Shown here piece by piece: positions 2,891-60,873 of a stretch of 64,000 nt of DNA. The notes under the pieces were generated by a model. The model worked only from the letters and a program-made list of their open reading frames with translations. It was not told where the DNA came from and made no database searches. The stretch is from an uncultured Gemmatimonadales bacterium (GTDB lineage Bacteria > Gemmatimonadota > Gemmatimonadetes > Gemmatimonadales > JACORV01), in the NCBI GenBank assembly GCA_964550365.1, contig CAZJZC010000001.1, positions 12,863-76,862 on the forward strand. The letters are read 5' to 3'. Each line of letters opens with the position of its first letter. Position 1 is the stretch's first letter. A program made the translations under genes and the position numbers.

Positions 2891-2903
2891 GGCGCCGTGC
2901 CGT

Positions 2904-9263: not shown

Positions 9264-9332
9264 CGGAGCTCCTCCTGGCCGGGAATATGGCGGTTGCGTA
9301 CCCGTGTCGCGACGAGGCACCTTCTCCCGCCT

Positions 9333-20155: not shown

Positions 20156-22570
20156 CTAGCTGCTCCCCGCGATGAGCCGACCCGCGCCGGTGGCGGTCCC
20201 GGCCGCCTGGACCTCGTCGTCGGCGGCATACCCCGGCAGGTAGCTGTAGTACTTGTAGATCCCCTCCGGCTTCACGTCGTTCAGCACCGCGCCCAGCACC
20301 CGGATCGGCAGACGGTCGAGGTCGCCCAGCTTGGCGCCGGTCAGTTCCTTGTTGGTCACGCCGGTCCGCAGCACCAGCAGCAGGTTCCCCGTCAGTGATC
20401 CCAGCACCAGCGGATCGACGCCCGCGCCCAGCGGCGCCGAGTCGACGATGATGACGCCGTACTGCGACCGCAGGCTGATGAGCAGCTGGCTCATGGCCGG
20501 CGAGGCCAGGAGCTCCGGGCCGCCCGCCCGCCGCGTGCCGCAGCCGATGAAGTCGACCGACGGCAGGCTGGTGTGCTGGATGACCTGCTCGCGCTCGGCG
20601 TGGCCGCCCAGGTAGTCGATGAGCCCCGGCTTGCGGTTCGCCTTGAGGACCCGGTGCAGGGTGCCGCGCCGGATGTCGCCGTCGATGAGCAGGGTGCGGT
20701 GGCCGGCGTCGGCGAACGACAGTGCCAGGTTGCTGGCCAGGAAGGACTTCCCGTCGCCGCTGCCGGGACTGGTGATGGTGACGACCAGCGGCCCGGCCGA
20801 ACCGTGGGCGGTCACGATGCGCAGTCGCACCGACCGCAGTGCCTCGACCACCTGCGCCGAGGCCTCGTCCCGACCCGACCCCGCGTTCAGCCGCGGGATC
20901 GCCCCCAGGATGTCGAGGCCGAGCTCCTCGGTCACCTGGTCGGGGTAGCGCAGGCGGCGGTCGAACCGGTCGAGCAGCAGCGCCAGCGCGATGCCGAGGG
21001 CCAGCGAGCCGGCCATGCTGCCCAGCGCGACCAGCGGCTTGATGTTCTTGGTCGGCCGGTCGGGGACCACCGCCGGGTCGAGGATCCGGACGTCCGGGAT
21101 GCTGCTGGCCTCGGCCAGCCGGGCCTCGCTGTAGCGGGCCTGGAGGTTGGTATACAGCTGGTTGGCGATGGTGACGTCGCGCGAGAGCCGCGCCTCCTCG
21201 ATGGCGCGCGTCGGGATCTCCCGCAGGTCGCGCGAGGCGACGTTGATGCGCTCGTTGAGGAACGACTCGCGGGTGCGCATGTCGTCGAGCAGCGACCGCA
21301 TCATGGCCGGGATGCCCTGGCGCTGCAGCCCCCGGATCTCGGACAGCTGCCGCTCGACCTGCGGGTTGTCGTCGGTATAGCGCAGGCGGAGGATCCGCAG
21401 GGCCGCCTGTTTCGCCGTCAGGTCCGACAGGGCCGCGCGCAGCTCCGAGTTGCTCTGGATCGACGGGATCGCCTCGAGCACCACCGCCGAGATGCCGCTG
21501 TCCGGCGGCTGCTGCAGCACGCGCTGGATCGCCTCGCGGTCACGGCGCAGCTGGTCGCTCTCGCTGCGCATGTTGAAGTAGCTCTGCAGCGCCGGCGTCT
21601 GGGTCATCTGCAGTCCCGACACCACCGGCGGCGCCTGCTCCTCGCGCGGCAGGGTGATGGTGTTGACCTTGAAGGTCTCGAGCGCGTTCTCGGCGCGGCG
21701 CAGTTCGACGTACGACGCCTGCAGCTGGGCATCGAGGATGCGCGTCAGCTCCGTCAGCTTCTCCCGCTTCAGGTTGCGCGCCACCGACACGAACTGTTCG
21801 GCGATCGAGTTGAGGGTCGCCGCCGTCAGCGCCGGCACCCGGCCGTCCAGCGTGAGCTTGAGGAAGTTCCCGTCGCGCGGCGGAAGCACGGCGCCGAGGC
21901 GGGCGTTCAGGCCCACCGCCGCCTGCCGCGGCACGGTCACGCTGAAGCCGACGACGCGCCCGGGACGGAACGCCGTGGCCGGCGGCAGCCAGCGGAAGCC
22001 CGCGGGCACCCCGACCGAGTCACCCGCCGCACCGCGCTGCACCTCGCCCGCCACGTTGTGGAGCAGCACGAACGAGCGGCCGTCGGCACTGGCCCGGAAC
22101 TCGTAGCGGCCCGGGCGGAACCGGTCCATCAGCTCGAAGCTGCTGAACAGCGGGGCATCCAGCCCCGGGTTCTCGATCGACAGGTACAGCCGCTGGGCCT
22201 TCACAACCGAGTCCAGCACCGTGAACGAGCGGAGCAGGTCCAGCCAGTTGGTGTTCTGCAGCAGCTGCCCCTGCTGGATCGGGCCCTGGGTGCCCGCCAT
22301 CGGTTCGACCCAGATGGTGGCCTGCGCCTGGTAGACCGGATCGAGGATGCGGGCCACGGTCACGCCGCCGGCCGCGCCGACGACCGTCAGGAAGGCGACC
22401 AGCCACTTGTAGCGCCCGACCGCCGCCAGGTACCGGCCGAAGTCCGGCCCGCGCTCCTCGGCGGGCAGCGGCGGCGGCGCATTGTAGCCCGATGGCACCG
22501 CGGCGGGGTCGGCCCGCACGATGGCCGTGCCGTCCGAACCCTCGAGACCCGCTGGCAGATTGCTCGACAT
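20156..22570 (-). CDS. Polysaccharide co-polymerase / tyrosine autokinase (Wzc/GumC-type BY-kinase)
   Basis: The 1595-aa track ORF was trimmed to ATG 22570 (804 aa). Two TM segments flank a long coiled periplasmic domain. Walker A SPGSGDGKS, A' LLIDGDIRR, Walker B IIVDSAP, and a Tyr-rich tail YKYYSYLPGY. Confidence 0.92.
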   Translation of the reverse strand: MSSNLPAGLEGSDGTAIVRADPAAVPSGYNAPPPLPAEERGPDFGRYLAAVGRYKWLVAFLTVVGAAGGVTVARILDPVYQAQATIWVEPMAGTQGPIQQGQLLQNTNWLDLLRSFTVLDSVVKAQRLYLSIENPGLDAPLFSSFELMDRFRPGRYEFRASADGRSFVLLHNVAGEVQRGAAGDSVGVPAGFRWLPPATAFRPGRVVGFSVTVPRQAAVGLNARLGAVLPPRDGNFLKLTLDGRVPALTAATLNSIAEQFVSVARNLKREKLTELTRILDAQLQASYVELRRAENALETFKVNTITLPREEQAPPVVSGLQMTQTPALQSYFNMRSESDQLRRDREAIQRVLQQPPDSGISAVVLEAIPSIQSNSELRAALSDLTAKQAALRILRLRYTDDNPQVERQLSEIRGLQRQGIPAMMRSLLDDMRTRESFLNERINVASRDLREIPTRAIEEARLSRDVTIANQLYTNLQARYSEARLAEASSIPDVRILDPAVVPDRPTKNIKPLVALGSMAGSLALGIALALLLDRFDRRLRYPDQVTEELGLDILGAIPRLNAGSGRDEASAQVVEALRSVRLRIVTAHGSAGPLVVTITSPGSGDGKSFLASNLALSFADAGHRTLLIDGDIRRGTLHRVLKANRKPGLIDYLGGHAEREQVIQHTSLPSVDFIGCGTRRAGGPELLASPAMSQLLISLRSQYGVIIVDSAPLGAGVDPLVLGSLTGNLLLVLRTGVTNKELTGAKLGDLDRLPIRVLGAVLNDVKPEGIYKYYSYLPGYAADDEVQAAGTATGAGRLIAGSS

Positions 22571-22858: not shown

Positions 22859-24340
22859 ATGACCGCGATCCCGGCTTCGAACACCCTGGTGATCAGCGCC
22901 GAGGCCAAGGCCAGCCTCGCCGTGCTGATCATCGACGATGAGCGCACCTTGCGCGAGAGCTGCAAGAGCGTCCTGGAGGCCGACGGCTTCCGGGTCGAGG
23001 TGTGCGCCCGCGGCGCCGACGCCCAGCAGCTCATCCAGCGGCGGCGCTACGACATCATCCTGACCGACCTGTACATGTCGGACGTCACCGGGATGGACCT
23101 GCTCAAGGCCGCCCTCGAGGCGGCGCCCGAGACCCTGGTGATCGTGATGACCGGCAACCCGAGCGTGGCGTCGAACGTCGAAGCGTTGCGCGCGGGCGCC
23201 TGGGACTACATCCCGAAACCGTTCTCGGCGACCCATCTCCAGATCCTGCTGGGCCGCGCCGCCCATGCGGTGATGGTGGCGCGGGAATCCTCGGCCAGTC
23301 ACGTCGGCGACGACGACTCGCCGGTGCAGCTGCTGGGCACCTCGCCGGAGTTCCGGCGGGCCCTCGAGCTCGCCCGCAAGGTGGCCGTGACCGACGCCTC
23401 GGTGTTCATCACCGGCGAGAGCGGGACCGGCAAGGAGATGATCGCGCAGTTCATCCACGCCCACAGCCGCCGCAGTTCGCGGCCCATCGTGGCGGTCAAC
23501 TGCGCCGCCCTGCCCGAGGCCCTGCTCGAGTCCGAGATGTTCGGGCACATGAAGGGCGCCTTCACCGGCGCCGTGAAGGACAAGGCCGGCCTGCTGGAGG
23601 CCGCCAACGGCGGCACCCTGTTCCTCGACGAGCTGATCGAGATGCCCAAGCCGGTCCAGGCCAAGCTGCTGCGCGTGATCCAGGACGGCGTGGTCCGGCG
23701 GCTCGGCAGTGCGCAGACCAGCGCGGTGGTCAACGTGCGGTTCATCGCGGCATCGAATCGCGACCCCGACGAGTCCGTGCGTGACGGCGCCCTCCGTGAG
23801 GACCTGTACTACCGCCTGCGCGTGGTGCCGATCCACCTGCCGCCCCTGCGCGAGCGGCCCGAGGACATCACCCTGCTGGCGAACCACTTCCTGACGCTGT
23901 ACTGGCGCCGGCACCGGGGCGCCAATGCTCCTCTGCCCACGCTGTCCGACGGCGCCCTGAGCGCGCTGGCGGCGCACGGCTGGCCGGGCAACGTGCGCGA
24001 ACTGCAGAACGCCATCGAGCACACGGTGGTCCTGCTCGAACCCGGGCAGGAGATCCAGCAGAAGGACATCCCGTTCCCCGGGACCGACCGGCCGGCGACC
24101 GGCGGCGCGGACGTCACGACCCCGATGTGGAACGACGAGGAGCTGGAGCAGAGCTACCACGCGGCGCGCGAGCGGGTGATCGCGACCTTCGAGCGCCGCT
24201 ACCTCACCTGGCTGGTCAACCGCGCCGGCGGGAACATGTCCAAGGCCGCGCGGCTGGCCGGCGTCGACCGGACCACGCTCTATCGGCTGATGGAGCGGCA
24301 CGGACTGCAGCGTGAAACCATCACCGTCGCGTCGGAGTAG
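22859..24340 (+). CDS. Sigma-54-dependent response regulator (NtrC/PrsR-like bacterial enhancer-binding protein)
   Basis: Trimmed to ATG 22859 (493 aa). Canonical REC (IIDDE, IILTDLYM, VMTG, IPKPF). AAA+ with GESGTGKE, the GAFTGA sigma-54 contact loop, GGTLFLDEL and WPGNVRELQN. C-terminal Fis-type HTH NMSKAARLAGVDRTTLYRLMERHGL. Confidence 0.93.
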   Translation: MTAIPASNTLVISAEAKASLAVLIIDDERTLRESCKSVLEADGFRVEVCARGADAQQLIQRRRYDIILTDLYMSDVTGMDLLKAALEAAPETLVIVMTGNPSVASNVEALRAGAWDYIPKPFSATHLQILLGRAAHAVMVARESSASHVGDDDSPVQLLGTSPEFRRALELARKVAVTDASVFITGESGTGKEMIAQFIHAHSRRSSRPIVAVNCAALPEALLESEMFGHMKGAFTGAVKDKAGLLEAANGGTLFLDELIEMPKPVQAKLLRVIQDGVVRRLGSAQTSAVVNVRFIAASNRDPDESVRDGALREDLYYRLRVVPIHLPPLRERPEDITLLANHFLTLYWRRHRGANAPLPTLSDGALSALAAHGWPGNVRELQNAIEHTVVLLEPGQEIQQKDIPFPGTDRPATGGADVTTPMWNDEELEQSYHAARERVIATFERRYLTWLVNRAGGNMSKAARLAGVDRTTLYRLMERHGLQRETITVASE

Positions 24341-24341: not shown

Positions 24342-25508
24342 ATGACCGGCCACGGGACCGAACTCGGTCGCGCCGGCGCCCGTCGCGAACGGGTGGCCGA
24401 GCGGCCCGCCCCGGCGGCGGCCGAGAGCACCGCCGGGCAACTCGGCGGCGCCCTCGAGAGCGTCGGCTTCCCGGAGATCCGCGCGGCCGCGCAGGCCGTG
24501 CTCGCCGCCTGGACCAACACGCGGGGCGACGCCGCCGACCCCGCCGAGGCCCGGCAGGCGGTCATCTGGCTGGCCGACGCGGTGGACCGCGTGGCGCGCG
24601 GCGGGACGGTCGGCGCCGAAACGCCGGCCTCGACGCCGCTGGGCCGCCACCTGCTGGCCGAACTGCGGGGCGAACTGGTGCGGGCCTGGCACGCGGCCGG
24701 CGACGCGGGCCCGGACATGCTGGAGGTGCTCGGGGCGATCGAAACGGTCCGCCGGGCCATCGAGCCCGACTGGGCCGAGTACTTCACGTCGCGCCTCTCG
24801 GGGCCCGACGGCCTGGACCTCGTGGTGGAGGTCGCCCACGACCTGCGCTCGCCGGTGACCTCGATCATCTTCCTCGCCGAAACGCTCACCCGCGGCCAGA
24901 GCGGCGAGGTGAACGAGCTCCAGAAGCGGCAGCTGCGCCTCATCTACAGCGCCGCCCTGGGCCTCTCGTCCATGGCCAGCGACGTCATCGAACTGGCCCG
25001 CGGCGGCGACCAGCTGGTCGAGCGGGAGGTGTCGCCGTTCTCGGTCGCCGAGATCCTGGAGTCGGTCTCGGACATGGTGCGGCCGATCGCCGAGGAGAAG
25101 GGCCTCGCGATCCGGTTCACGCCGCCGCCCACCGACCACCGGCTCGGCCGGCCCCTGGCGCTCAGCCGGGTCCTGCTCAACCTCACGACCAACGCCCTCA
25201 AGTTCACCGACGACGGCTTCGTGGAGATCAGTACCCGCGCCCGCGGCCTGCAGGCCGTCGAGTTCAGCGTGCGCGACACCGGCCAGGGCATCTCCGAGGA
25301 GGCGCTCGCCAACCTGTACCAGCCGTTCCGGCGGACCCGGGCGCGGGCCGGCCGCAGCGGCTACTACTTCTCGGGCACCGGTCTGGGTCTGGCCATGTGC
25401 CGCAAGCTGGTCGAAGCGATGGGTGGAGAGTTGCAACTTGAAACGAAACCGGGCTGGGGGACCAGGTTCTTCTTCGAGTTGGCGTTGCCGCCGTCGAGTC
25501 ATTTGTAG
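24342..25508 (+). CDS. Soluble sensor histidine kinase (HisKA + HATPase_c) with uncharacterised ~170-aa N-terminal domain
   Basis: ATG 24342 lies 1 nt after the regulator stop. H-box EVAHDLRSPVTSI, N-box LLNLTTNALKFT, G1 VRDTGQGIS, G2 GTGLGLAMC. No hydrophobic TM segment is visible. Confidence 0.9.
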   Translation: MTGHGTELGRAGARRERVAERPAPAAAESTAGQLGGALESVGFPEIRAAAQAVLAAWTNTRGDAADPAEARQAVIWLADAVDRVARGGTVGAETPASTPLGRHLLAELRGELVRAWHAAGDAGPDMLEVLGAIETVRRAIEPDWAEYFTSRLSGPDGLDLVVEVAHDLRSPVTSIIFLAETLTRGQSGEVNELQKRQLRLIYSAALGLSSMASDVIELARGGDQLVEREVSPFSVAEILESVSDMVRPIAEEKGLAIRFTPPPTDHRLGRPLALSRVLLNLTTNALKFTDDGFVEISTRARGLQAVEFSVRDTGQGISEEALANLYQPFRRTRARAGRSGYYFSGTGLGLAMCRKLVEAMGGELQLETKPGWGTRFFFELALPPSSHL

Positions 25509-25682: not shown

Positions 25683-26408
25683 ATGACAGCCATCGAACTC
25701 GTTCGTTCCGACCTTACTGCCGACCGAGCCCGCGCGGAGGCCTTCGAGCCGCCGGCCGACGACGTTGCCGAATCGCGCGCCCGCCGGATCCTCAACATCC
25801 TGGTGGCCGCGATCGGCCTGGTGCTCACCGCTCCGCTGCTGCTGGTCATCGCCGTGGCCGTGCGGCTGACGTCGCCGGGACCGATCCTCTACCGGCAGGT
25901 TCGGGTCGGCCTCGACCGCCGCAGTCCCCGCCTGCCCGTGGGCAACCACCGGCGCGCCATCGACTACGGCGGGAAGCCGTTCACCATCTACAAGTTCCGG
26001 ACGATGGCCGCGACCGCCTCGCGCAGCAGCCGCCAGGTGTGGGCCTCGCCGAACGACGCCCGGGTCACGCCGCTCGGCCGGCTGCTGCGCAAGTACCGGC
26101 TCGACGAGCTGCCGCAGCTGGTCAACGTGCTGCGCGGCGACATGAACGTCGTCGGCCCGCGTCCCGAGCAGCCGACCATCTTCGCCGACCTGCGCCAGCA
26201 GGTGCCGCAGTACGGCGAGCGGCAGCGGGCGCGTCCCGGCATCACGGGCTGGGCCCAGATCAATCACCATTACGACCGCTCGATCGACGACGTGCGCCGC
26301 AAGGTGGCGCTCGACCTGGAGTACATCGCCCGGCAGTCGCTGAGAGAGGATCTCCGCATCATGCTGCGGACCGCCCCCGTGCTGGTGTTCAAGAAGGGGG
26401 CTTGGTAG
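25683..26408 (+). CDS. Polyprenyl-phosphate sugar-1-phosphate transferase (Bac_transf family priming enzyme, WbaP/EpsB-like short form)
   Basis: 241 aa with one TM (ILNILVAAIGLVLTAPLLLVIAV). Family motifs include PILYRQVRVG, YKFRTM, DELPQLVNVLRGDMNVVGPRPE and PGITGWAQI. Confidence 0.92.
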   Translation: MTAIELVRSDLTADRARAEAFEPPADDVAESRARRILNILVAAIGLVLTAPLLLVIAVAVRLTSPGPILYRQVRVGLDRRSPRLPVGNHRRAIDYGGKPFTIYKFRTMAATASRSSRQVWASPNDARVTPLGRLLRKYRLDELPQLVNVLRGDMNVVGPRPEQPTIFADLRQQVPQYGERQRARPGITGWAQINHHYDRSIDDVRRKVALDLEYIARQSLREDLRIMLRTAPVLVFKKGAW

Positions 26409-26412
26409 TAGC

Positions 26413-27285
26413 TTGACCGGTGTGGCGACCTCGATGCGGCCGCTCCCATTCCCGATGAAGACGCCAGCGCCGACCACGATCGTCACGGCGCTGGCGTTCC
26501 TCGTTCTGTTCTGGCAGCCCATGAGCACCATGGCGCGGGACTGGTGGAACGACCCGGACGCCGGCCACGGCCTGCTGCTGTTCCCGGTCGCCCTGTACCT
26601 CGCCTGGCGCCGCGGCCGGGCCCCGGCCGCCGCCGAACAGCCGGTACTCGGGCTGGTCCTGCTCCTCGCGGCCGTCGCCCTCCGGTACGTCTCGGGCCTG
26701 GCGGCGGAGCTGTACACCATGCGGCTGTCCATGCTGGGCGCGCTGGCCGGCCTGATCATCGTCCGCAACGGCGTGCGCCAGATCCTGCACTGGTGGCTGC
26801 CGACCACCCTGGTGCTGCTGTCGGTGCCGCTGCCGGCGGTGGTCCTGGGCACCCTGGCCCTGCCGCTCCAGCTGATCGCCTCCGAGTGGGGGGCGGCCCT
26901 GCTCGAGGCCCGCCATGTCCCGGTCCGCCTGGCAGGGAATGTGCTCTATCTGCCGGGACGGTCGCTCTTCGTGACCGAGGCCTGCAGCGGCCTGCGATCG
27001 CTGACGGCGCTGGTGGCGCTGGGGGTCCTGATCGGCGGCCTGTCGCTCCGTTCGGTCTGGGCACGGGTCCTGCTCATCGGAGCAGCGATCCCGGTCGCGA
27101 TCGCGCTCAACGCGGTCCGGATCTTCCTGACCGGTTTCCTCGTCTATTTCGTCAGCCCCAGCCTGGCCGAAGGGGTGATGCACTACTCGGAGGGCTGGGC
27201 CATGTTCGTCATCGCCTTCGCGGCCCTCGGGGCCATCGCGTTCCTCCTGTTGCAGGCCGAGCGCCTGCTCCGGAGGCTCGCGTGA
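26413..27285 (+). CDS. Exosortase (EpsH/Xrt family transpeptidase)
   Basis: 290 aa, polytopic. Catalytic-motif regions are FVTEACSGLRSL (Cys), ALNAVRIFL (Arg) and VMHYSEGWAMF (His). The track start is TTG; in-frame GTG 26422 and ATG 26434 are alternatives. Confidence 0.92.
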   Translation: MTGVATSMRPLPFPMKTPAPTTIVTALAFLVLFWQPMSTMARDWWNDPDAGHGLLLFPVALYLAWRRGRAPAAAEQPVLGLVLLLAAVALRYVSGLAAELYTMRLSMLGALAGLIIVRNGVRQILHWWLPTTLVLLSVPLPAVVLGTLALPLQLIASEWGAALLEARHVPVRLAGNVLYLPGRSLFVTEACSGLRSLTALVALGVLIGGLSLRSVWARVLLIGAAIPVAIALNAVRIFLTGFLVYFVSPSLAEGVMHYSEGWAMFVIAFAALGAIAFLLLQAERLLRRLA

Positions 27286-27941
27286 GGGCGTCCCTCATCC
27301 GCGCCTGGCTGCCGCCGGCGGTCCTCGCGTTCGGCGCCCTGCTGACCGCGTCCCACACGCGGGCCCAGCAGGCGGCGAGCCTGCGCGCGCCCCTGCGCTC
27401 GGCCATCCCCCAGCGCGTCGAGGACCACCCGAGCCGCGACATCGCCCTGTCGGCCGACGAGGAACGCGTGGCCGGGGTGACCAGTTACCTCGTCCGGGCC
27501 TACCTCGAGGACGACACGCCGTCCGCGCGGATCGCCTTCTCGCTGTACGTCGGCTACTACGACCGCCAGACCCAGGGGCGGACCATCCACTCGCCGCGCA
27601 ACTGCCTGCCGGGCGGGGGCTGGGAGCCGCTGACCTCGTCGCGCACCTCGATCGAGACCGGCGCGGGACCGGCGGTGGTGAACCGCTACCTGCTGCAGCG
27701 CGGCACCGCGCGCCTCCTGGTCCTGTACTGGTACCAGGGCCGGGGACGCGTGGCCGCCAACGAGTACGCGGTGAAGTGGGACCTGCTGCGGGACGCCGCG
27801 GTCCACAAGCGCACCGAGGAGGCCCTGGTGAGGATCATGGTGCCGGTCGACGGCACCGAAGGCGAGGCGTTCGCGCTCGGCCAGCGCGTGGCCGCGACCA
27901 TCGTGCCGGCGCTGAACGCGGCGCTTCCGCAGCTGCAGTAG
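27282..27941 (+). CDS. epsI: EpsI-family exosortase-associated protein (separate polypeptide)
   Basis: GTG 27282 overlaps the exosortase stop (GTGA). 219 aa with an N-terminal TM/signal. The family motif HSPRNCLPGGGW compares with the HSPxxCLPGxGW pattern. Confidence 0.85.
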   Translation: MRASLIRAWLPPAVLAFGALLTASHTRAQQAASLRAPLRSAIPQRVEDHPSRDIALSADEERVAGVTSYLVRAYLEDDTPSARIAFSLYVGYYDRQTQGRTIHSPRNCLPGGGWEPLTSSRTSIETGAGPAVVNRYLLQRGTARLLVLYWYQGRGRVAANEYAVKWDLLRDAAVHKRTEEALVRIMVPVDGTEGEAFALGQRVAATIVPALNAALPQLQ

Positions 27942-27960
27942 CGCGTGCGCGAGCCGAGCG

Positions 27961-29613
27961 ATGACGCTGACCCCTCCACCCGGTGCTCCGACCGAACCGA
28001 CGCCCGCGCCTGACGTGACGGGCCTGCCCGCGGCCGGCCGCTCCCTGCCGTACCGCTGGATCGCCGCGGGCCTGCTGGCCCTGCACGTCGGGCTGATCTG
28101 GTTCGCCCGCACGCCCGGCGTCCTGACCGGCCACGACGACGCCCGGTACCTGCTGCTGGCAAGGTCCCTGCGCGCATCCGGCTACCGGGCGCTGTGGCGC
28201 TCCGACATGCCGCTCGAAGCGAACTACCCGCCGGGCTTCCCGGCCCTGCTCGCGCTGGCGGACGTGCTCCACTGGGGCTCGTTCACCCAGCTCATCCTGC
28301 TGAACGCCGCCCTGAGCGCCGCGGCGCTCGGGCTCACGTACCTGCTGGCGGCGCGCCGCTGGACCCCGGCCGTCGGCGTGCTGGTGCTGGCGCCGCTCGC
28401 CGTCAATCCGCACCTGGTGGATCTCGCCGGCTACGTCATGTCGGAGCCGGCGTTCATGTTCTGGTGCGTCCTGGCCATCGTCCTGCTGACGGACGACCGG
28501 CCGGGCCGCACCCGGCTGTGGGCCGCCGGCCTGGCCAGCATCGCCGCCGCGCTGACGCGGACCGTCGGCATCGGCCTGGTCGCCGCGGTCGGCCTGCTGT
28601 TCCTGTCGCGCCGGCGGTGGGCCGCGGCGGCCGTCTACGCGCTCGCCGCGGCGCTCACGATCGGCAACTGGCTGGCCTTCACGGTGCGGAACCCGGACCA
28701 GTTCCAGGGCGAGGCCTACACGGCCGACCTGCTGAACGTCGAGGGGACCCGGAGCCTGGCGGTGACGCTGGCGCGCCGGGTGACCGAGAACACGGTGGTC
28801 TACGCCGGGCGAGCGCTTCCCGACGCCCTCTCGCTGCCGGCCATCGCGTCCACGCCGCTCGACAACGCCGTCTGGGCCGTGCTGGCGGCCCTGCTGCTGC
28901 TCGCCGGCGCGGCGAGCATGGTGCGGCGCGCGCGGGCCGGCCTGTTCTTCCTCATCACGACCGCCGTGATCCTGCTGCTCTACAACTGGGCGCTGGTGCG
29001 GCTCCTCGCTCCGCTCCTGCCGTTCCTGGTGCTGGCCATCATGGCCGGTGCCGTGCGCCTGGCCGGACGTCGGGCGTGGCAGGTCGCCGGCGCGCTGGCG
29101 CTGGTCATGACCGTGACCGGGGCCGTCCGGACCGCGCGCCTGGTGGCCGCGCGGGCCACCTGTGAGCGCGCCGCCGAACTGCCCGCCGGCTGCGTGACGC
29201 CCGACCAGGCGAGCTTCTTCGCGGCGGTGGCCTTCATCCGGGAGCACGTGCCGGCCGAGGCCGTGTTCATCACCGCGAAGCAGGCGACCCTGACGCTCTA
29301 CACCGGCCACCAGAGCGTGAACTTCCCGACCGCGATCCGGGTGGATCCCAGCCGGTTCCTCGACTTCGCGCGGGACAACCGGGTATCATACATCCTGCTG
29401 GGGAGCCTCCGGTCGGTCGAGGTCGGCCTGCTGGCCCGGCGCGTCGAGGCGGCCTGCCCGGCGCTGGAGCTCATCGAAGCGTTTCCGCCACGGACCCTGC
29501 TGTTCCGTGTGCGGCCGCCAGGCGACACGGAGGGCGAGGCCGGCCCTGCCTGTCGCGCCGTGGCGGCCTACACCATCAGCAACCGCGACCGGGACTTCGA
29601 TCGTGACTTCTGA
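27961..29613 (+). CDS. GT-C-fold integral membrane glycosyltransferase (PMT_2 / ArnT-like, GT39/GT83-type)
   Basis: 550 aa with about 10 or more TM segments. The first extracytoplasmic loop carries the family acidic motif GHDDARYLLLARSL, which compares with D-(D/E)-(A/G)-R-Y-xxx-A. A C-terminal ~150-aa soluble domain follows. Confidence 0.72.
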   Translation: MTLTPPPGAPTEPTPAPDVTGLPAAGRSLPYRWIAAGLLALHVGLIWFARTPGVLTGHDDARYLLLARSLRASGYRALWRSDMPLEANYPPGFPALLALADVLHWGSFTQLILLNAALSAAALGLTYLLAARRWTPAVGVLVLAPLAVNPHLVDLAGYVMSEPAFMFWCVLAIVLLTDDRPGRTRLWAAGLASIAAALTRTVGIGLVAAVGLLFLSRRRWAAAAVYALAAALTIGNWLAFTVRNPDQFQGEAYTADLLNVEGTRSLAVTLARRVTENTVVYAGRALPDALSLPAIASTPLDNAVWAVLAALLLLAGAASMVRRARAGLFFLITTAVILLLYNWALVRLLAPLLPFLVLAIMAGAVRLAGRRAWQVAGALALVMTVTGAVRTARLVAARATCERAAELPAGCVTPDQASFFAAVAFIREHVPAEAVFITAKQATLTLYTGHQSVNFPTAIRVDPSRFLDFARDNRVSYILLGSLRSVEVGLLARRVEAACPALELIEAFPPRTLLFRVRPPGDTEGEAGPACRAVAAYTISNRDRDFDRDF

Positions 29614-30001
29614 GACGTCCTTCCAGAACGACCGCGGCCTCCCGCCGGGTGCTCGCGGCATCAGCCTGCGCAGTGCCCCGACCCGCTCCGTGGTGGTCGC
29701 CTCGCGCGCTCCGCGTGACCGGCTCGACACCTGCCTCTCGGCGCTGGTGCCCGCGTGCCGGGCGGCGGGCGTGGAACTGGTGGTCTGCCGCGCCTGCGAG
29801 CCGTCGGAGTTCCGGGCGCTCGCGGAGGCCTATCCATCGGTCCTCTGGATGCCCGCGCCCGACGGCCTCGACGAGCGTGGCCTGCGGGCCATCGGCTTCA
29901 CGGCGGCCGACGGCGACATCGTCTCGCTCCTCGACGACGGCCGGCCGGTGCCCGCCGGCTGGCTCGACGGCCCTCCCGGCCCTGCGGACGCCCATGACTG
30001 A
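29603..30001 (+). CDS. Short GT2-like protein (N-terminal Rossmann half only, 132 aa)
   Basis: GTG 29603 overlaps the previous stop by 11 nt. SVVVASRAPRDRLDTCLSAL...ADGDIVSLLDD mimics the first half of a GT-A domain through the DxD position, and then the frame ends. It overlaps the next gene by 8 nt. Confidence 0.45.
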   Translation: MTSETSFQNDRGLPPGARGISLRSAPTRSVVVASRAPRDRLDTCLSALVPACRAAGVELVVCRACEPSEFRALAEAYPSVLWMPAPDGLDERGLRAIGFTAADGDIVSLLDDGRPVPAGWLDGPPGPADAHD

Positions 30002-30890
30002 GACGGCGCCGGCGCTGTCGGTGGTGGTGCCCTCGGTCAACGGCTGGGGCGACCTGGAGGGCTGCCTGCGTGCGCTCATGGCTCAGCGCGGCGCATCCGT
30101 GGAGGCCATCGTGGCCGACCGCGTGGGTCCGGCGGTGCGCGAGCCGCTGCGGCAGGCGTTCCCCTCGGCGGTGCTGATCGAAGCCGCGGCCGGCACCGCC
30201 ATCCCGGCCCTGCGGCGCCTGGCCTTCGCACGGGCGCGGGCCGAGGTCGTCGGCGTCATCGAGGACCACGTCATCGTCCCGCCGGACTGGGCGGCGCGGA
30301 TGCTCGCCGCGCACGCCGCGGGCGCCGAGGTGGTCGGCGGCGCGGTGGTCAACGCCGCCACGTCCTCGCTGGTGGACTGGTCCGCGTTCCTGTGCGAGTA
30401 CAGCCACTGCCTGACGCCGCCGGCCGGGCCGTCGACGTGGCTGACCGGCAACAACACGACGTATCGTCGGGCCCTGCTCGAGCGGTTCGCGGGCGTGATC
30501 GCCGAGGACCGCTGGGAGGGCGCACTGCACGACGCCATCCGCGAAGCCGGCATCCCGCTCCTCAGCCGGCCCGACATCGTCGTCGGCCACAAGAAGCATT
30601 ACACGGTCGGCGAGTACGTCGGCCAGCGGTTCCTGTACTCGCGGTCGTACGCCGGCCTGCGGGTGGCCGGGACACCCGCCCTGCGCCGCCTGGCCTACGG
30701 GCTGGCGGCCCTGGCCCTGCCGCCGCTGCTGTTCGCGCGGGTGGTGGGGCGGGTGTGGGCCGCGCGGCGGCACCGCGGCGAGCTGGCCCGGTCCCTGCCC
30801 CTGCTGGGGGTCTACGTCGTCAGCTGGGCGCTGGGCGAGAGCGCCGGCGCGTGGTTCGGCGCCGGCGACGCGCTGGAGCGGGTGACCTGA
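29994..30890 (+). CDS. Glycosyltransferase family 2-like protein with C-terminal TM segments
   Basis: ATG 29994, 298 aa. LSVVVPSVNGWGDLEGCLRAL, with IEDH at the DxD position. TM helices near LAYGLAALALPPLLFARVV and LPLLGVYVVSWALG. Confidence 0.78.
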   Translation: MTETAPALSVVVPSVNGWGDLEGCLRALMAQRGASVEAIVADRVGPAVREPLRQAFPSAVLIEAAAGTAIPALRRLAFARARAEVVGVIEDHVIVPPDWAARMLAAHAAGAEVVGGAVVNAATSSLVDWSAFLCEYSHCLTPPAGPSTWLTGNNTTYRRALLERFAGVIAEDRWEGALHDAIREAGIPLLSRPDIVVGHKKHYTVGEYVGQRFLYSRSYAGLRVAGTPALRRLAYGLAALALPPLLFARVVGRVWAARRHRGELARSLPLLGVYVVSWALGESAGAWFGAGDALERVT

Positions 30891-32380
30891 TGCGCGAGCC
30901 CGACAACCCGCGCACGGTGAGCCCGCTGGCCGAGGGCCAGCGGGTGGCCGTCATCGGCGCCGGGCCCGGCGGCCTGACGGCGGCCTACCTGCTGGCCAAG
31001 GCCGGCGTCCCCGTCACGGTCTTCGAGGCCGAACAGGAGGTCGGCGGCATCTCGCGCACGGCCCGCTACAAGGGCTGGCGGTTCGACATCGGCGGCCACC
31101 GCTTCTTCACCAAGATCCGCCCGGTCGAGGAGCTGTGGCACGAGATCCTGGGGCCGGAGTTCATCGCGGTCCCGCGGCTCTCGCGCATCTACTACGACGG
31201 CCGTTTCTTCGACTACCCGCTCAAGGCCATGAACGCGCTGCGGGGCCTCGGCCTCCTCAACGCGTCGCTCATCATGCTCTCCTACCTCAAGGCGCGCCTC
31301 TGGCCCAGCCCGGTCGAGGAGAACTTCGAGCAGTGGGTGTCGAACCGGTTCGGCAGGCGGCTGTACGAGATCTTCTTCAAGACCTACACCGAGAAGGTCT
31401 GGGGCATCGCCTGCACCGAGATCCGGGCCGAGTGGGCGGCGCAGCGCATCCAGGGCCTCTCGCTCACCAAGGCCATCCTGTCGGCGGCCCAGCTCACCAA
31501 GCGCTCGACGGCCATCAAGACGCTCATCAACGAGTTCCAGTACCCGCGGCTGGGGCCGGGCCAGATGTGGGAGACCGCGACCGAGCGCGTGCGCGCCATG
31601 GGCGGCGAGGTGCTGCTCGGGCACGCCGTGACGGCGGTCGAGCTGCACGAGGGCCGCGCCGTGGCGGTCCGCGCGCGCACCGCCGAGGGCGAGCGGCGCT
31701 TCGCCTGCGACCACGTCATCTCCACCACGGACGTGCGGGCGCTGGTGCGGGCGCTGGACCCGGCGCCGCCGGCCCGCATCCGCAGCGCGGGGGACGGCCT
31801 GCGCTATCGCGACTTCCTGACGGTCGCGCTGATGATCGACCGGCCCGACCTGTTCCCCGACAACTGGATCTACATCCACACGCCGGGCGTGAAGGTGGGC
31901 CGCATCCAGAACTTCAACAACTGGTCGAAGGCCATGGTGGCCGACGCCGATCGGACCACCTGCCTGGGGCTCGAGTACTTCTGCTTCGAGGGCGACGGGC
32001 TGTGGACCACGCCCGACGCCGAGCTGATCGCCCTGGCCACGCGGGAACTCGCCCAGCTGGGTCTCGACGCCGGGGCGACGGTGTTCGACGGCACCGTGGT
32101 CCGCCAGCGGAAGGCGTACCCGATCTACGACGGCGAGTACCGGGCCCACCTGGACGAGGTGCGCTCGTTCATCGACGCGATCCCGAACCTGCACTGTGTC
32201 GGCCGCAACGGCATGCACAAGTACAACAACCAGGACCACTCGATGCTGACGGCGATGATGACCGTCTGGAACATGCAGGGCGCGGCGCACGACGTCTGGT
32301 CGGTGAACACCGACTACGAGTACCACGAGGAGATCCGGGTCCCGGACGCCCGGCCGGCCGCCGGCACCGTGGCGGACTGA
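30890..32380 (+). CDS. NAD(P)/FAD-dependent oxidoreductase (amine-oxidase/UDP-galactopyranose-mutase-like fold)
   Basis: ATG 30890 overlaps the previous stop (TGATG). 496 aa with dinucleotide motif VAVIGAGPGGLTAAYLLAKAGVPVTVFEAEQEVGG. Confidence 0.84.
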   Translation: MREPDNPRTVSPLAEGQRVAVIGAGPGGLTAAYLLAKAGVPVTVFEAEQEVGGISRTARYKGWRFDIGGHRFFTKIRPVEELWHEILGPEFIAVPRLSRIYYDGRFFDYPLKAMNALRGLGLLNASLIMLSYLKARLWPSPVEENFEQWVSNRFGRRLYEIFFKTYTEKVWGIACTEIRAEWAAQRIQGLSLTKAILSAAQLTKRSTAIKTLINEFQYPRLGPGQMWETATERVRAMGGEVLLGHAVTAVELHEGRAVAVRARTAEGERRFACDHVISTTDVRALVRALDPAPPARIRSAGDGLRYRDFLTVALMIDRPDLFPDNWIYIHTPGVKVGRIQNFNNWSKAMVADADRTTCLGLEYFCFEGDGLWTTPDAELIALATRELAQLGLDAGATVFDGTVVRQRKAYPIYDGEYRAHLDEVRSFIDAIPNLHCVGRNGMHKYNNQDHSMLTAMMTVWNMQGAAHDVWSVNTDYEYHEEIRVPDARPAAGTVAD

Positions 32381-32386
32381 GCCACG

Positions 32387-35777: not shown

Positions 35778-35781
35778 GCCG

Positions 35782-38001: not shown

Positions 38002-38013
38002 CCGGGAGCCGGC

Positions 38014-38310
38014 ATGACGGGTACCGACCAGGAGCTCCGCCAGGCGATCGCCAGGCTCAACGCGCGAGCCTGGGGCATCGCGATGGGCATGCTGCTCGGC
38101 GGCGGACTGTTCCTCGCGACCAACATCCTCGTGGTGAAGGGCGGGCCGAACGTCGGCCGGCATCTCTCGCTGCTGAGCGTGTACTTCCCCGGCTACCGGG
38201 TGACCTTCCTGGGCAGTTTCATCGGCTTCGTGTACGCCTTCGTGCTGGGCTACATCCTCGGGCGGCTGATCGGCACGATCTACAACAAGCTGCTCGCGAA
38301 CGACCGGTGA
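38014..38310 (+). CDS. Small 2-TM membrane protein, paralog B (98 aa), unknown function
   Basis: Shared pattern with paralog A: xRxxGxAxGxxLG ... L(L/A)xxYFxGYxVxxxG ... FxxGxxxG ... N. It lies 12 nt after paralog A, and its stop overlaps the next gene's start (GTGA). Confidence 0.65.
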   Translation: MTGTDQELRQAIARLNARAWGIAMGMLLGGGLFLATNILVVKGGPNVGRHLSLLSVYFPGYRVTFLGSFIGFVYAFVLGYILGRLIGTIYNKLLANDR

Positions 38311-39404
38311 GGGTCGCCGTCCTCGGCCTGGGGAACGCCGGCTTCGACATCCACCTGCCCGCGCTCGCCGCCCTGCCCGGCATCGCCGCCGTGGGCGTGG
38401 ATCCCGACCCGGCCCGGCGGGCGCGCGCCGCCGACCGGTTCGGCGTCCCGGTGTTCCCCTCGCTCGACGACGCCGCCGCCGCCGCACGGGTCGACGTCGT
38501 CATCGTGGCCACGCCCCCGGCCTCCCACGACGCGCTCTGCCGCCGGGCCTTCGACCTCGGTGCCGACGTCCTGTGCGAGAAGCCCTTCGCGCTCAGCGTG
38601 GCCGAGGCCCGCGGCATCGTCGCGGCCGCCTCGGCCGCCGGGCGCCGCGTGGCGCTCAACCACGAGTTCCGCGAGATGCCCATCTTCCGGGCCCTGCGCG
38701 ACGAGCTCGCGCGGCCGGACACCGGCGGCCTGGTGTTCGCGCAGGCATGGCAGAACATGGACCTGCCGCCGTGGAAGGAGCCGGGCTGGCGCGGCCAGCT
38801 GCTGACCGGCACGCTCTACGAGGCGGGCCTGCACCTGGTCGACTACCTGCTGGTGCTGTTCGGCGAGGCGCCGGCGGCCGTCTCGGCGACGATGTCGAGC
38901 GGCGGGGTCCGGCCGGAACCGTCCGACGCGCTGGCGCTGGTGACCATGGAGTTCTCGCGCGGCCGGCTGGGCCAGGTGATCCAGAACCGCCTGTGCCCGG
39001 GGGAGACGCAGTACTTCGAGGTGCGGGCCGACACCGAGCGCGCCTCGCTGCGCGCCTCGTTCGGCGGGCGGGCCCGGGTGAGCGCGGGCCTGTACCGGTC
39101 GACCCGGCCGCACCTCCGGCTCGAGCTGGGCGCGTCGGGCATCGCCTGGAGCGAACGCGGCCATGCGCGCCGGATGCTCGCCGCCAATCCCAAGGCGCCG
39201 GCCGCAGCGGCCACCGGCATCCTGATCCGCAAGACGCTGGACGCCTTCGCGTCGGGCGGCGCGCCGCCGGCGAGCGGCGAGGACGGCGTCCGGGCGCTCG
39301 AGGTGCTCGCGGCGTGCTATGTGTCGGCGGACACGGGGCGGCGCGTGGCCGTGGACGGGGCCGACGCCCTGCGGACCTTCCGGTTCGGCCGTGCTCCCTC
39401 GTGA
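38307..39404 (+). CDS. Gfo/Idh/MocA-family NAD(P)-dependent oxidoreductase
   Basis: 365 aa with RVAVLGLGNAGFDIHLPAL, the EKP motif (DVLCEKPFA) and VALNHEFR. Confidence 0.84.
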   Translation: MRVAVLGLGNAGFDIHLPALAALPGIAAVGVDPDPARRARAADRFGVPVFPSLDDAAAAARVDVVIVATPPASHDALCRRAFDLGADVLCEKPFALSVAEARGIVAAASAAGRRVALNHEFREMPIFRALRDELARPDTGGLVFAQAWQNMDLPPWKEPGWRGQLLTGTLYEAGLHLVDYLLVLFGEAPAAVSATMSSGGVRPEPSDALALVTMEFSRGRLGQVIQNRLCPGETQYFEVRADTERASLRASFGGRARVSAGLYRSTRPHLRLELGASGIAWSERGHARRMLAANPKAPAAAATGILIRKTLDAFASGGAPPASGEDGVRALEVLAACYVSADTGRRVAVDGADALRTFRFGRAPS

Positions 39405-40277: not shown

Positions 40278-41783
40278 ATGCCGGAGCCCATCGGAGTGCC
40301 CCCGGGGTCCGACGCCGAGCGGCGCGCGCTCGCGCAGCAGGCCATGGATCGTCGCCTGGTCAAGGGCATCGCCTGGACCGGCGCCGCCAAGTGGGGGACC
40401 CAGGTGCTGAGCTGGGCCTCGACGCTGATCGTCGCGCGCCTGCTCACCCCGGACGACTACGGCCTGATCGGCATGGCCATGGTGTACCTGGGCTTCGTCC
40501 AGCTGATCAACGAGATCGGCGTGAGCGCCGCCATCATCCAGCGGCGGGACCTCGACGCGTCGCTGATCGCCCGGCTGGGCGGCCTGGCGGCGCTGGCGGG
40601 CGTGGTCTTCTTCCTGATCTCGCTCGCCGTCGCCGCGCCGCTGGCGGGCTTCTTCGGCGAGCCCGCCGTCAGGTCCATCGTGATCGCGCTGTCGACCACC
40701 TTCCTCCTCGGCGGGCTCCAGGTCCTGCCGTACTCCCTGCTGACGCGGGACCTGGAGTTCCGCCGGCTCGCCTGGATCGACGCCGCCGAGGCGATCGCGC
40801 TCACGGCCGTCACGCTCGGCGCCGCCCTGCTGGGCTTCGCCTACTGGTCGATCGTGGCCGGCGGGATCGCGGCGAAGCTGGTCGGTGCCGCCGCCGCCCT
40901 GGCGGCCCGGCCCCACCGGCTCCGCTGGCCGGCCGACTGGAGCACCCTGGGTCCCGCGCTCCGCTTCGGCTCGAACGTGGTCATCGGGCGCATCGCCTGG
41001 TATGCCTACAGCAACGCCGACTTCGCCATCGTCGGCAGGGTCCTCGGCAAGACGGCGCTGGGGGCCTACACGTTCGGCTGGACCATCGCCAGCATCCCCG
41101 TCGACAAGGTCAGCGCCCTGCTCGGCCGCGTGATGTTCCCGGTGCTCGCGTCGGTGCAGGACGACCGGGCCGCCGTGACCCGGTACTTCCTCCGCGTCAC
41201 CGAGGGCCTGGCGCTCGTCACCTTCCCGCTCTCGGTCGGCACGGCCCTGGCGGCCGACAGCCTGGTCAGCGTGGTCCTCGGCCCGCGCTGGACCGCCGCG
41301 GTCGAGCCGCTGCGCATCCTGGCGCTGTACGCCGCCTATCGTTCGATCATGACCCTGTTCCCGCACGTCCTGCTGGCGCTGGGCGACGCCCGGCGCACCA
41401 TGCACCTGAGCGTGAGCGCCGCGATCGTTCTGCCGCTGTGCTTCCTGGGAGGGACGTACTGGGGCACGACCGGCGTGGCCCTGGGGTGGGTGTTCGGCTA
41501 CCCGCTGGTCACCCTGCCGTTCCTGCTGCGGTATGTGCTGCGCCCGCTGGGCATCGGCGCCGGCACGTACGCCCGGACCCTGTGGCCGGCGTTCAGCGCC
41601 ACCCTGGTGATGGCGCTGGCGATCGTCGGCGTACGGCAGCTGCTCGCGGACCAGGCGACGGCGCCCGTGACACTGCTGGCGGACGTCGCGACGGGCGCGG
41701 CCGCGTACGGCGCCGCCGTCCTGCTCATGCACCGCGACAGGGTCACGGCGCTGGCGCGGGCGGTGCGCGAGGCCCGGCGATGA
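40278..41783 (+). CDS. Wzx-type polysaccharide flippase (MOP/PST superfamily)
   Basis: 501 aa with about 12-14 TM segments. N-terminal block KGIAWTGAAKWGTQVLSWASTLIVARLLTPDDYGL is typical of 'lipopolysaccharide biosynthesis protein' PST flippases. Confidence 0.9.
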   Translation: MPEPIGVPPGSDAERRALAQQAMDRRLVKGIAWTGAAKWGTQVLSWASTLIVARLLTPDDYGLIGMAMVYLGFVQLINEIGVSAAIIQRRDLDASLIARLGGLAALAGVVFFLISLAVAAPLAGFFGEPAVRSIVIALSTTFLLGGLQVLPYSLLTRDLEFRRLAWIDAAEAIALTAVTLGAALLGFAYWSIVAGGIAAKLVGAAAALAARPHRLRWPADWSTLGPALRFGSNVVIGRIAWYAYSNADFAIVGRVLGKTALGAYTFGWTIASIPVDKVSALLGRVMFPVLASVQDDRAAVTRYFLRVTEGLALVTFPLSVGTALAADSLVSVVLGPRWTAAVEPLRILALYAAYRSIMTLFPHVLLALGDARRTMHLSVSAAIVLPLCFLGGTYWGTTGVALGWVFGYPLVTLPFLLRYVLRPLGIGAGTYARTLWPAFSATLVMALAIVGVRQLLADQATAPVTLLADVATGAAAYGAAVLLMHRDRVTALARAVREARR

Positions 41784-60712: not shown

Positions 60713-60782
60713 CTCGGAACTACCCCCCCTCACGCCTCGTGAACCGCGTAGCCGGGGCAGTTCCCGCCTCGGCCGAACATTG

Positions 60783-60798: not shown

Positions 60799-60873
60799 GC
60801 CAGCGGCAGTAGCGTTAACCAATTGTACCACAAGCACTTGAACTGCATCGGACTGGTCGGCGAGCACGGCATT

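Follow-up and report, generated by a model that had tools for sequence, protein, structure and literature searches.

The stretch of DNA analysed here (64,000 nucleotides (nt) of contig CAZJZC010000001.1 from an uncultured Gemmatimonadales bacterium, hereafter the window) carries an exosortase gene and epsI, followed by the gene of a 550-amino-acid (aa) polytopic membrane protein. The latter is assigned to the glycosyltransferases (GTs) of the GT-C fold and is the subject of this report. Its gene is the 5' gene of a portable, conserved glycan cassette of ~12 genes, found mostly in Gemmatimonadota. Genes were called from third-position GC bias, the G+C content of the window being ~74%. The tightly packed co-directional run on the + strand extends over 25683–39404. 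It opens with the short, single-transmembrane (TM) form of a polyprenyl-phosphate sugar-phosphate (priming) transferase (25683..26408; Bac_transf, Pfam E-value (E) 3e-59), followed by the exosortase (26413..27285; PF09721 Exosortase_EpsH, E 5e-60; TIGR02602, 151 bits at a cutoff of 105.6), the exosortase-associated periplasmic protein EpsI (27282..27941; PF11984 DUF3485/EpsI, E 1.8e-46; TIGR02914, 107.6 bits at a cutoff of 42.8) and the GT-C (27961..29613; 550 aa, GC3 0.94).

The head-to-tail arrangement of these four genes had been described in an earlier note made from the sequence alone, and all four proved to be real. The junctions were also described correctly: the stop codon of the exosortase and the start codon of EpsI share GTGA at 27282–27285, and the gene following the GT-C overlaps it by 11 nt (GTG at 29603, TGA at 29611–29613). 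The gap between EpsI and the ATG of the GT-C gene (27961) is 19 nt, and no terminator-like site was found between the two genes. Co-transcription of the GT-C and its cassette with the exosortase operon, which that note had taken as evident, is plausible on these grounds.

The assignment of the 550-aa protein is based on structure and on profile–profile comparison, not on Pfam or NCBIfam profiles. The AlphaFold2 (AF2) model, built on 12 homologues, has a pLDDT of 86.6 and a pTM of 0.88 and contains ~11 TM helices (simple hydropathy gives 8 segments). Comparison of this model with known GT-C folds had been proposed in the earlier note. The 40 best Foldseek matches in the PDB are all GT-C enzymes, and only GT-C enzymes reach a probability of 1.00, among them STT3A/B, ArnT, ALG12, ALG9, AglB, DPY19, Pmt4, AftA/AftB/AftD, PglB, Emb and PimE. 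The E-values for STT3, ArnT and ALG12 are close to each other (1e-7 to 1e-6). ArnT (5f15/5ezm), which is of similar length, is matched with a TM-score of 0.55 in both directions; Pmt1, Pmt2 and Pmt4 are matched in part only (TM-score 0.29–0.43). A transporter fold, which the earlier note had named as a refutation of the assignment, can be rejected, the MFS-type matches having a probability of 0.21 or less.

The description of the protein as a GT-C of the PMT_2/ArnT type thus holds for the fold and for the profile–profile homology, and fails at the level of family profiles, as no PMT_2 or ArnT profile matches it at threshold. No other Pfam or NCBIfam family does so either (GT87, E 4.6e-4, 20.4 bits at a cutoff of 25; AZOBR_p60025, E 1.3e-3), and neither phmmer nor the family profile gave a significant match among the PDB sequences. 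Alignment of the family by hhalign with three of its distant matches, annotated as PF13231 and/or PF02366, yields a probability of 99.6% (E 1.8e-23, 421 columns). Weak PMT_2 matches are present in 4 of the 12 family members (best E 3.2e-5), and P0001–P0012 have no precomputed Pfam annotation. As judged from the model and the profile alignment, the protein can be placed among the integral-membrane glycosyltransferases of the GT-C(A) fold, its family being a remote branch of the ArnT/PMT_2 group.

Several closer identifications were tried and rejected. The protein is no orthologue of ArnT, as alignment with the E. coli enzyme by hhalign gives a probability of 0.2%. It is not an oligosaccharyltransferase (OST): the WWDYG motif is absent from its sequence, and the stretch weakly aligned opposite SWWDYG of STT3A reads FITAKQATLTLY (FITAKQATL in the weak profile alignment). 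It is also not a PMT, there being no Pfam match to PF02366 or to a MIR domain in the GT-C or in the relatives searched, and 550 aa leave no room for the latter. The role of a Wzy polymerase was set aside because the window encodes a separate Wzy_C protein and the fold is GT-C_A.

The first TM helix spans residues 28–49, and directly after it lies the acidic first-loop motif GHDDARYLLLARSL (residues 57–70), which the earlier note had pointed out. Its core is D59-D60-x-x-Y63, with Asp59 and Asp60 located at the start of the next helix. Asp59 and Tyr63 are invariant in all 12 family members, position 60 being Asp or Asn; YPP (89–91), Arg132, Glu162, Arg200 and Arg347 are also invariant in this alignment. 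The window sequence GHDDARYLLLARSLRASG resembles QPDETRYAEISREMLASG of E. coli ArnT. The D-x3-Y spacing is identical to that of Asp31/Tyr35 in ORF12 of family GT136, where both residues were mutagenised and found necessary (Kelly et al. 2024, PMC11127046). The C-terminal domain (residues ~400–550) is alpha/beta in the AF2 model. It harbors Cys401, Cys411, Cys499 and Cys531. These four residues are kept without exception in the query and in the four relatives nearest to it, which would fit an extracytoplasmic (periplasmic) location of this domain.

The family is large, unannotated and mostly found in Gemmatimonadota. An exhaustive profile search retrieved 3273 representative clusters (defined at 50% identity) at E<=1e-30 and 12,412 at E<=1e-10, with few exceptions full-length (~540 aa). 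A word-indexed search returned only 16 matches (best identity 42%) and missed near relatives of the GT-C, although the family is this large by profile search. Paralogues are common, several per genome or metagenome-assembled genome, some of them in tandem (L028, L030, L072, L082; genomes of L001/L002/L032, L003/L008 and L021/L036). Conservation is far higher in the cassette enzymes: the identity to the window is 59–79% for the neighbouring membrane-associated GT2 (GT2b) and, in cassette loci, 67–77% for the flavoenzyme, as compared with 30–41% for the GT-C. The GT-C evolves much faster than its cassette neighbours, as is expected for enzymes that diversify their acceptor or donor.

It had further been suggested that the GT-C is functionally coupled to protein sorting by exosortase and EpsI, and the conservation of the gene order was analysed from both sides. 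On the GT-C side, tblastn and phmmer searches with every window protein covered 80 genome loci (1.24 Mb in total, with flanks of 10 kb at most); these loci had been located with an alignment of 5 sequences, the one of 12 sequences offering no conserved stretch of sufficient length. On the exosortase side, 80 metagenome loci with an orthologous exosortase (57–74% identity; L084–L163) were used, of which 39 are informative, that is, extend at least 500 nt beyond EpsI. Exosortase and EpsI lie within 10 kb of the GT-C in just one of the 80 genome loci (L022), which is syntenic with the window throughout and is also the only one with the priming transferase. Among five relatives looked up by exact protein, only metagenome contig L081 is exosortase-linked, and it is fully syntenic with the window; the contexts of L082 and L083 are unrelated ones, the gene of P0002 is followed by an FMN-dependent dehydrogenase gene, and the contig of P0001 is too short to tell. 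From the other side, the GT-C comes next after the orthologous exosortase-EpsI pair in 2 of the 39 informative loci (L088 and L134).

What is conserved across the metagenome loci, where the flanks are long enough, is the block of Wzc (on the opposite strand), regulator, kinase, priming transferase, exosortase and EpsI, and the region after EpsI varies. The gene that follows EpsI is convergent in most loci; where checked, the following gene encodes a GT2 or a GT4, or a same-strand nucleotidyltransferase. The adjacency of GT-C and exosortase is commoner than random placement in a genome would give, as is to be expected if both genes live in exopolysaccharide (EPS) loci, and the co-occurrence does not amount to a conserved partnership. 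As far as the comparative data go, the GT-C is not a conserved partner of exosortase/EpsI, and a dedicated link between glycosylation and sorting is not supported. With the adjacency not conserved, this is essentially the outcome that the earlier note had named as refuting its proposal.

Distant GT-C-like open reading frames (ORFs) are present at two further loci, one convergent after EpsI (L135:11570-13012, - strand; profile hidden Markov model (HMM) E 1.4e-14) and one divergent beside a cassette that has no canonical GT-C (L168:5842-7287, - strand; HMM E 4.6e-20). Another GT-C enzyme may thus substitute at some loci. In L143 the gene directly after EpsI (8129-9652) encodes an apparent 507-aa fusion of a region like the short GT2 of the cassette (sGT2) with an enzyme like its GT2c, and there is no GT-C in the ~2.5 kb of contig beyond EpsI.

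The partners with which the GT-C does travel lie downstream. Locus L170 has the exact 12-gene order of the window, with the GT-C first (588 aa, HMM E 1.8e-121) and no exosortase: GT-C, short GT2, GT2b, flavoenzyme, GT4, GT4, short-chain dehydrogenase/reductase (SDR), deacetylase, GT2c, two small proteins (sm1 and sm2) and a Gfo/Idh/MocA oxidoreductase. Upstream of this cassette, on the other strand, lie a carbamoyltransferase gene and a VanZ-like gene. In L165 the cassette has the same gene order, likewise starting with the GT-C and with no exosortase upstream. The order is permuted in L004 and L009 (flavoenzyme-deacetylase-GT2c-sm1-sm2-GT-C-GT2b'-GT2b, GT2b' being a paralogue of GT2b), and the GT-C is nevertheless kept with the cassette genes, so that the linkage survives rearrangement. 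Within 10 kb of GT-C homologues, the gene of the flavoenzyme, which resembles UDP-galactopyranose mutase (UGM), was found in 11 loci, GT2b in 12, GT2c in 12, the GT4s in 12–13 and sm1/sm2 in 7–8, all of these loci being among the closer relatives; homologues of the Wzx flippase occur within 10 kb of the GT-C in 9 loci. The architecture of the locus is clear: a conserved core of regulator, priming transferase, exosortase and EpsI is followed by swappable glycan cassettes.

The cassette genes of the window are all on the + strand. The gene overlapping the GT-C (29603..30001) encodes sGT2, a free-standing 132-aa N-terminal half of a GT2 (GT-A) domain with a weak match to MftF-type GT2s (E 1.8e-4), which aligns with the N-terminal half of the full-length GT2b' paralogues. 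Short forms of ~107–163 aa are present in at least six loci including the window, between the GT-C or cassette start and GT2b or the flavoenzyme (L001:1600-1920, L026:11636-11971, L165:9513-10004, L168:7610-8008, L170:7589-8008), and full-length GT2b' (~290–315 aa) takes this position in L004, L009, L017, L022 and L081. It may be that sGT2 is a functional half-GT or a recurrent truncation retaining only the nucleotide-binding half. GT2b itself (29994..30890; 298 aa; PF00535, E 2e-9) has relatives in more than 100 clusters at 59–79% identity. Its AF2 model (pLDDT 95) consists of a GT-A domain and C-terminal helices. In Foldseek, WrtF, PcManGT and hyaluronan synthase come out on top and GtrB ranks 44th; the profile of GT2b matches the PDB in the generic N-terminal GT-A domain only. 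A protein 100% identical to GT2b (P0166) is on record from a public NCBI contig.

The next gene (30890..32380) encodes an FAD enzyme resembling the eukaryote-type UGM. It belongs to the uncharacterised NCBIfam equivalog NF005548 (705 bits at a cutoff of 389), and its best PDB sequence matches are the UGMs 4u8l and 3ute (E 6e-15, residues 19–229). It is followed by two GT4 glycosyltransferases (32387–33559 and 33556–34809; NCBIfam GT4-type matches, e.g. MshA and the MSMEG_0565 family), by an SDR resembling UDP-sugar dehydratases/decarboxylases (34806–35777; 28% identity over 335 aa to the C-terminal domain of E. coli ArnA, E 3e-37) and by a polysaccharide deacetylase matching PgaB/IcaB-type families (35782–36525), which shows no similarity to ArnD. 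GT2c (36522–37649; PF00535, E 1e-26) is a 375-aa GT2 with C-terminal TM helices; among its PDB sequence matches, PcManGT is aligned along the whole protein, and those to ArnC, DPMS and GtrB are confined to the N-terminal GT-A domain. Then come the paralogous small proteins sm1 and sm2 (37639–38001 and 38014–38310), each with 2 TM helices by simple hydropathy, and the run is closed by the Gfo/Idh/MocA oxidoreductase (38307..39404; NCBIfam matches), found at the same position in L170. Within the cassette sm1/sm2 always come after GT2c or the SDR. The sm2 protein matches a 75-residue 'bacteriophage holin' model of NCBIfam over its full length (E 5e-11, below cutoff). The sm1/sm2 proteins might act as a flippase or, in the manner of GacJ, as an accessory subunit of a GT2. 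No GtrA, SMR or MATE flippase signature was found in the cassette, and no UbiA/PPPRS-type gene was seen alongside the GT-C. Since the flavoenzyme resembles UGM and the SDR resembles the ArnA decarboxylase/UDP-xylose synthase type, the gene content hints, speculatively, at a furanose or pentose sugar in the cassette product.

Upstream of the run lie the remaining genes of the conserved core. A Wzc-like polysaccharide co-polymerase/tyrosine autokinase (20156..22519, - strand; TIGR01005, E 1.2e-59; TIGR01007, 117.8 bits at a cutoff of 108) is divergent from the core operon, a position kept in L022, L081 and many metagenome loci. A sigma-54-dependent response regulator similar to PrsR (22859..24340, + strand; TIGR02915 PEP_resp_reg, E 4.7e-112, below the cutoff of 502.6 bits) is present upstream of the exosortase in many of those of the 80 metagenome loci that have sufficient upstream sequence. 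The sensor histidine kinase (24393..25508, + strand; histidine kinase families, E ~1e-39) is syntenic in L022, L081 and many of the metagenome loci. The priming transferase matches the C-terminal part of TIGR03025 and of TIGR03013 (EpsB_2), below both cutoffs.

The exosortase stays below the subtype cutoffs, with 156 bits for XrtA (cutoff 208) and 176 bits for XrtD (cutoff 400), and the exosortase/EpsI pair passes the generic models only (TIGR02602, TIGR02914). The top scores of the pair, far under cutoff, are to the two halves of the fused XrtD model. Many metagenome contigs (L084–L163) contain the pair in the same conserved operon with the sigma-54 regulator, the kinase and the short priming transferase. 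By these scores it looks like an unnamed exosortase subtype occurring mostly in Gemmatimonadota.

The remainder of the window places the cassette in its surroundings. A MOP/Wzx-type flippase is encoded just after the run (40278..41783, + strand; NF007773, E 5.8e-65, 220 bits at a cutoff of 273). A Wzy_C/O-antigen-ligase-like protein lies at 56764..58158 on the - strand (PF04932, E 2.7e-21; TIGR03097, E 9.5e-23, below cutoff). TIGR03097 is named 'putative O-glycosylation ligase, exosortase A system-associated' in NCBIfam, and the protein is an alternative candidate for polymerisation or for O-glycosylation of the sorted cargo. Several GT4s, an acetyltransferase and an AsnB-type amidotransferase are present in addition. 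Because it carries Wzx, Wzy_C, Wzc, several GT4s and the acetyltransferase, the window is a Wzx/Wzy-type EPS locus of the exosortase type. Most of the related loci are from Gemmatimonadota, which by itself would point to this phylum as the probable source.

The cargo of the exosortase is represented by one PEP-CTERM protein (59496..60239, - strand; TIGR02595, 19 bits at a cutoff of 16). Its tail VTPEP-TM-RRR is unique in the six frames of the window, and no other PEP-CTERM protein was found there. The gene lies 30 kb from the GT-C on the opposite strand. This protein had been described as a Ser/Thr/Gly-rich cargo. It is indeed a PEP-CTERM protein; its mature region is only moderately rich in these residues (Ser+Thr 19%, Gly 17%), and no long disordered Ser/Thr tract was found in it. 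The adjoining stretch 60236–62115 (- strand) encodes two further proteins, a small membrane protein with a weak match to the cyanoexosortase-associated HpsJ family (E 2.7e-5) and one of 388 aa with a VanZ domain. The exosortase-free cassette of L170 also has a VanZ-like gene beside it (2101-3880).

Characterised GT-C enzymes use polyprenyl-phosphate-linked donors at the periplasmic face. By analogy, the active site of the window GT-C would lie on the periplasmic side, in the first loop after TM1 (Asp59, Tyr63). A sugar would be passed there from a polyprenyl-phosphate-linked donor to the acceptor, with the C-terminal periplasmic domain probably helping to bind the latter. The cassette would build or decorate a cell-envelope glycan, and in the lineage of the window it is placed directly behind the conserved operon of sigma-54 regulator, kinase, priming transferase, exosortase and EpsI; from the probable co-transcription it would follow that the glycan and PEP-CTERM sorting are co-regulated. 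Because the GT-C is linked to the cassette, the acceptor would be the polysaccharide or its lipid-linked intermediate, glycosylated after assembly in the periplasm by a system of the 'three-component' type, and probably not the exosortase cargo. In such systems a GT-C works together with a flippase and with a synthase of the lipid-linked sugar (PMC11127046). Of the two roles proposed in the earlier note, decoration of the polymer fits the evidence better owing to the cassette linkage, and glycosylation of the cargo finds little support. All in all, we consider it fairly probable that the GT-C is a glycosyltransferase which takes its sugar from a lipid-linked donor in the periplasm and belongs to a conserved glycan cassette docked behind the exosortase operon, with a polysaccharide or a lipid-linked intermediate as the most likely acceptor.

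Several observations weigh against this interpretation. The acceptor of the GT-C is entirely inferred. No donor-supplying enzyme with a confident match was found in the cassette: GT2b is structurally nearer to WrtF, PcManGT and hyaluronan synthase than to GtrB, and the similarity of GT2c to such synthases covers the generic GT-A domain only. The sm1/sm2 stretch (37639–38310) matches no flippase family in Pfam or NCBIfam. The cassettes of L001 and L026 are devoid of GT2b and GT2c. The order exosortase-EpsI-GT-C is kept in five contigs (the window, L022, L081, L088 and L134), even though the GT-C of L022 and L081, which are syntenic over the full length, is only 39–41% identical to that of the window, and this linkage may have some selective value. 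The closest-scoring homologues (P0001 and P0002, 42% identity) are found in yet other contexts, so that orthology is hard to define in this fast-evolving family.

The absence of a convincing monosaccharide-phosphate-lipid synthase would be explained if the substrate of the GT-C were an oligosaccharide assembled beforehand on a polyprenyl-diphosphate carrier, flipped by Wzx and then transferred en bloc, the GT-C acting as an OST or as a functional ligase/polymerase. STT3 and AglB are top Foldseek matches and PglB is present among them too, four or five cytoplasmic GTs of the cassette could build the oligosaccharide, and a Wzx flippase is nearby and recurs at GT-C loci as described above. However, the ranking of GT-C subfamilies by Foldseek is too close to be decisive, the OST hallmark WWDYG is missing (with FITAKQATLTLY weakly aligned in its place), the relatives at the sequence level are of the PMT_2/ArnT type, which use monosaccharide-phosphate-lipid donors, and polymerisation or ligation could be served by the separate Wzy_C protein. 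En bloc transfer is hence rather unlikely.

The similarity to ArnT raises another possibility, namely that the GT-C modifies lipid A, the lipopolysaccharide core or another non-EPS envelope lipid, the cassette being an Arn-like pathway placed in an EPS locus by chance. ArnT, which has the same size, is among the best structural matches, the N-terminal motif of the GT-C is ArnT-like, and the SDR, the deacetylase, the TM-anchored GT2 and the two small membrane proteins superficially parallel ArnA/D/C/E/F. The parallel does not extend further, however. When the cassette was compared with the E. coli arn operon, only the SDR resembled the ArnA C-terminal domain, and GT2c corresponded to the N-terminal domain of ArnC only. 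The GT-C family matches E. coli ArnT in hhalign with a probability of only 0.2%, the deacetylase is unrelated to ArnD, both an ArnB-type aminotransferase and a formyltransferase are absent from the cassette, sm1/sm2 (2 TM helices each) match no known flippase family, and nothing in the Arn pathway corresponds to the two GT4s or to the UGM-like enzyme. The Arn-like pathway was rejected on this comparison, and an envelope lipid as the target is regarded as improbable.

Equally improbable is the function that the earlier note had put forward for the cargo, that of a protein O-glycosyltransferase (like PMT or streptococcal PgtC2) acting on the PEP-CTERM cargo in concert with exosortase and EpsI. 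PEP-CTERM proteins are widely suspected to be glycosylated, with no enzyme assigned (PMC12188702, PMC9850573), and pairs of a GT-C and GtrB are known to O-glucosylate Ser/Thr-rich regions of bacterial membrane proteins (PMC12041528). The position of the GT-C directly after EpsI, with the short gap and no terminator-like site, would suit such a function, as would the retention of this arrangement in L022, L081, L088 and L134 and the occurrence of Pmt4 and Pmt1/2 among the fold matches. On the other hand, the adjacency is missing at 79 of the 80 GT-C genome loci and at 37 of the 39 informative exosortase loci, and L165 and L170 have the cassette without any exosortase. The single PEP-CTERM gene is distant, on the other strand, and its product is moderately Ser/Thr-rich without a long disordered Ser/Thr tract; the GT-C has no Pfam MIR match and is too short for this domain; and the Wzy_C protein of the TIGR03097 kind is an equally good or better candidate. 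No paper mentioning exosortase together with GT-C was found in the literature searched; the link between sorting and glycosylation appears to be new as an idea, and the comparative data do not back it. Still more doubtful is a version restricted to the lineage with the exosortase-EpsI-GT-C order (the window, L022, L081, L088 and L134), in which the GT-C would act on the PEP-CTERM cargo, or join it to the cassette glycan, upon release by exosortase; if true, the GT-C would be the missing enzyme by which PEP-CTERM proteins, as has long been suspected, are glycosylated or attached to EPS.

We know of no demonstration that PEP-CTERM proteins carry glycans or become linked to exopolysaccharide, nor of the way in which this would happen. 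A GT-C functionally tied to exosortase would have offered direct access to this question, and the comparative evidence argues against such a tie. The fold and the general chemistry of the GT-C are of a known kind, while the family itself (3273 clusters) has no sequence match in Pfam, NCBIfam or the PDB; it is a candidate CAZy family in its own right, like GT136 in 2024. The conserved 12-gene cassette unites a UGM-like flavoenzyme, an ArnA-like SDR and a free-standing half-GT2, and its product may hold a furanose or pentose. The architecture of a core with a swappable cassette helps to interpret such loci in soil metagenomes.

Among known enzymes, ArnT (CAZy GT83; PMT_2, PF13231) is similar to the window GT-C in its GT-C(A) fold and its length (550 aa in both the window protein and E. 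coli ArnT, 541 residues in the C. metallidurans structure), in the motif after TM1 (D-[DE]-x-R-Y-x-x-[IL]-[AS]-R-x-[LM]-x-A-S-G), in the C-terminal periplasmic alpha/beta domain and in the remote homology to PMT_2-bearing proteins. It differs in that no significant direct sequence or profile match exists, the window protein giving no PMT_2 hit in Pfam, and in that the window GT-C has no Arn operon context, its gene belonging to a cassette of the EPS type that also encodes GT4s and a UGM-like enzyme. PMT (GT39) and streptococcal PgtC2 with GtrB (PMC12041528) share the GT-C fold, the acidic first-loop motif and, presumably, periplasmic action. The substrates of these enzymes are secreted or membrane proteins rich in Ser/Thr, and it is this activity that the earlier note had proposed; in contrast to these enzymes, the window GT-C has no MIR domain and no conserved link to a cargo or sorting enzyme, and its structural matches to Pmt proteins are partial.

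The exosortase/PEP-CTERM EPS loci of the system of Haft et al. (TIGR03013 EpsB_2, TIGR02915 PrsR, TIGR03097 O-ligase-like) are represented in the window by the full set of Wzc, PrsR-like regulator, kinase, priming transferase, exosortase, EpsI, Wzy_C protein, AsnB-like amidotransferase and PEP-CTERM protein. The XrtA-specific models, however, are all below cutoff here. The described system has no GT-C, and in the window the GT-C belongs to the variable region only.

Functionally nearest are the GtrA/B/C and GT136 pentofuranose systems (Kelly et al. 2024, PMC11127046). There too the gene of a GT-C that has an additional periplasmic domain at its C-terminus is part of a Wzx/Wzy-type polysaccharide locus, next to genes of TM-anchored GT2s, of small membrane proteins and of redox enzymes that modify sugars; in the active site, GT136 ORF12 (Asp31/Tyr35) and the window GT-C have the same D-x3-Y spacing. 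The differences are that no GtrB-type or phosphoribosyl-pyrophosphate-dependent polyprenyl-phosphate sugar synthase was found in the window cassette, nor a GtrA, SMR or MATE signature, and that ORF12 carries a beta-rich carbohydrate-binding module at its C-terminus where the window GT-C is alpha/beta. Finally, the known systems are add-ons of 3–4 genes, whereas the window GT-C heads a cassette of 12.

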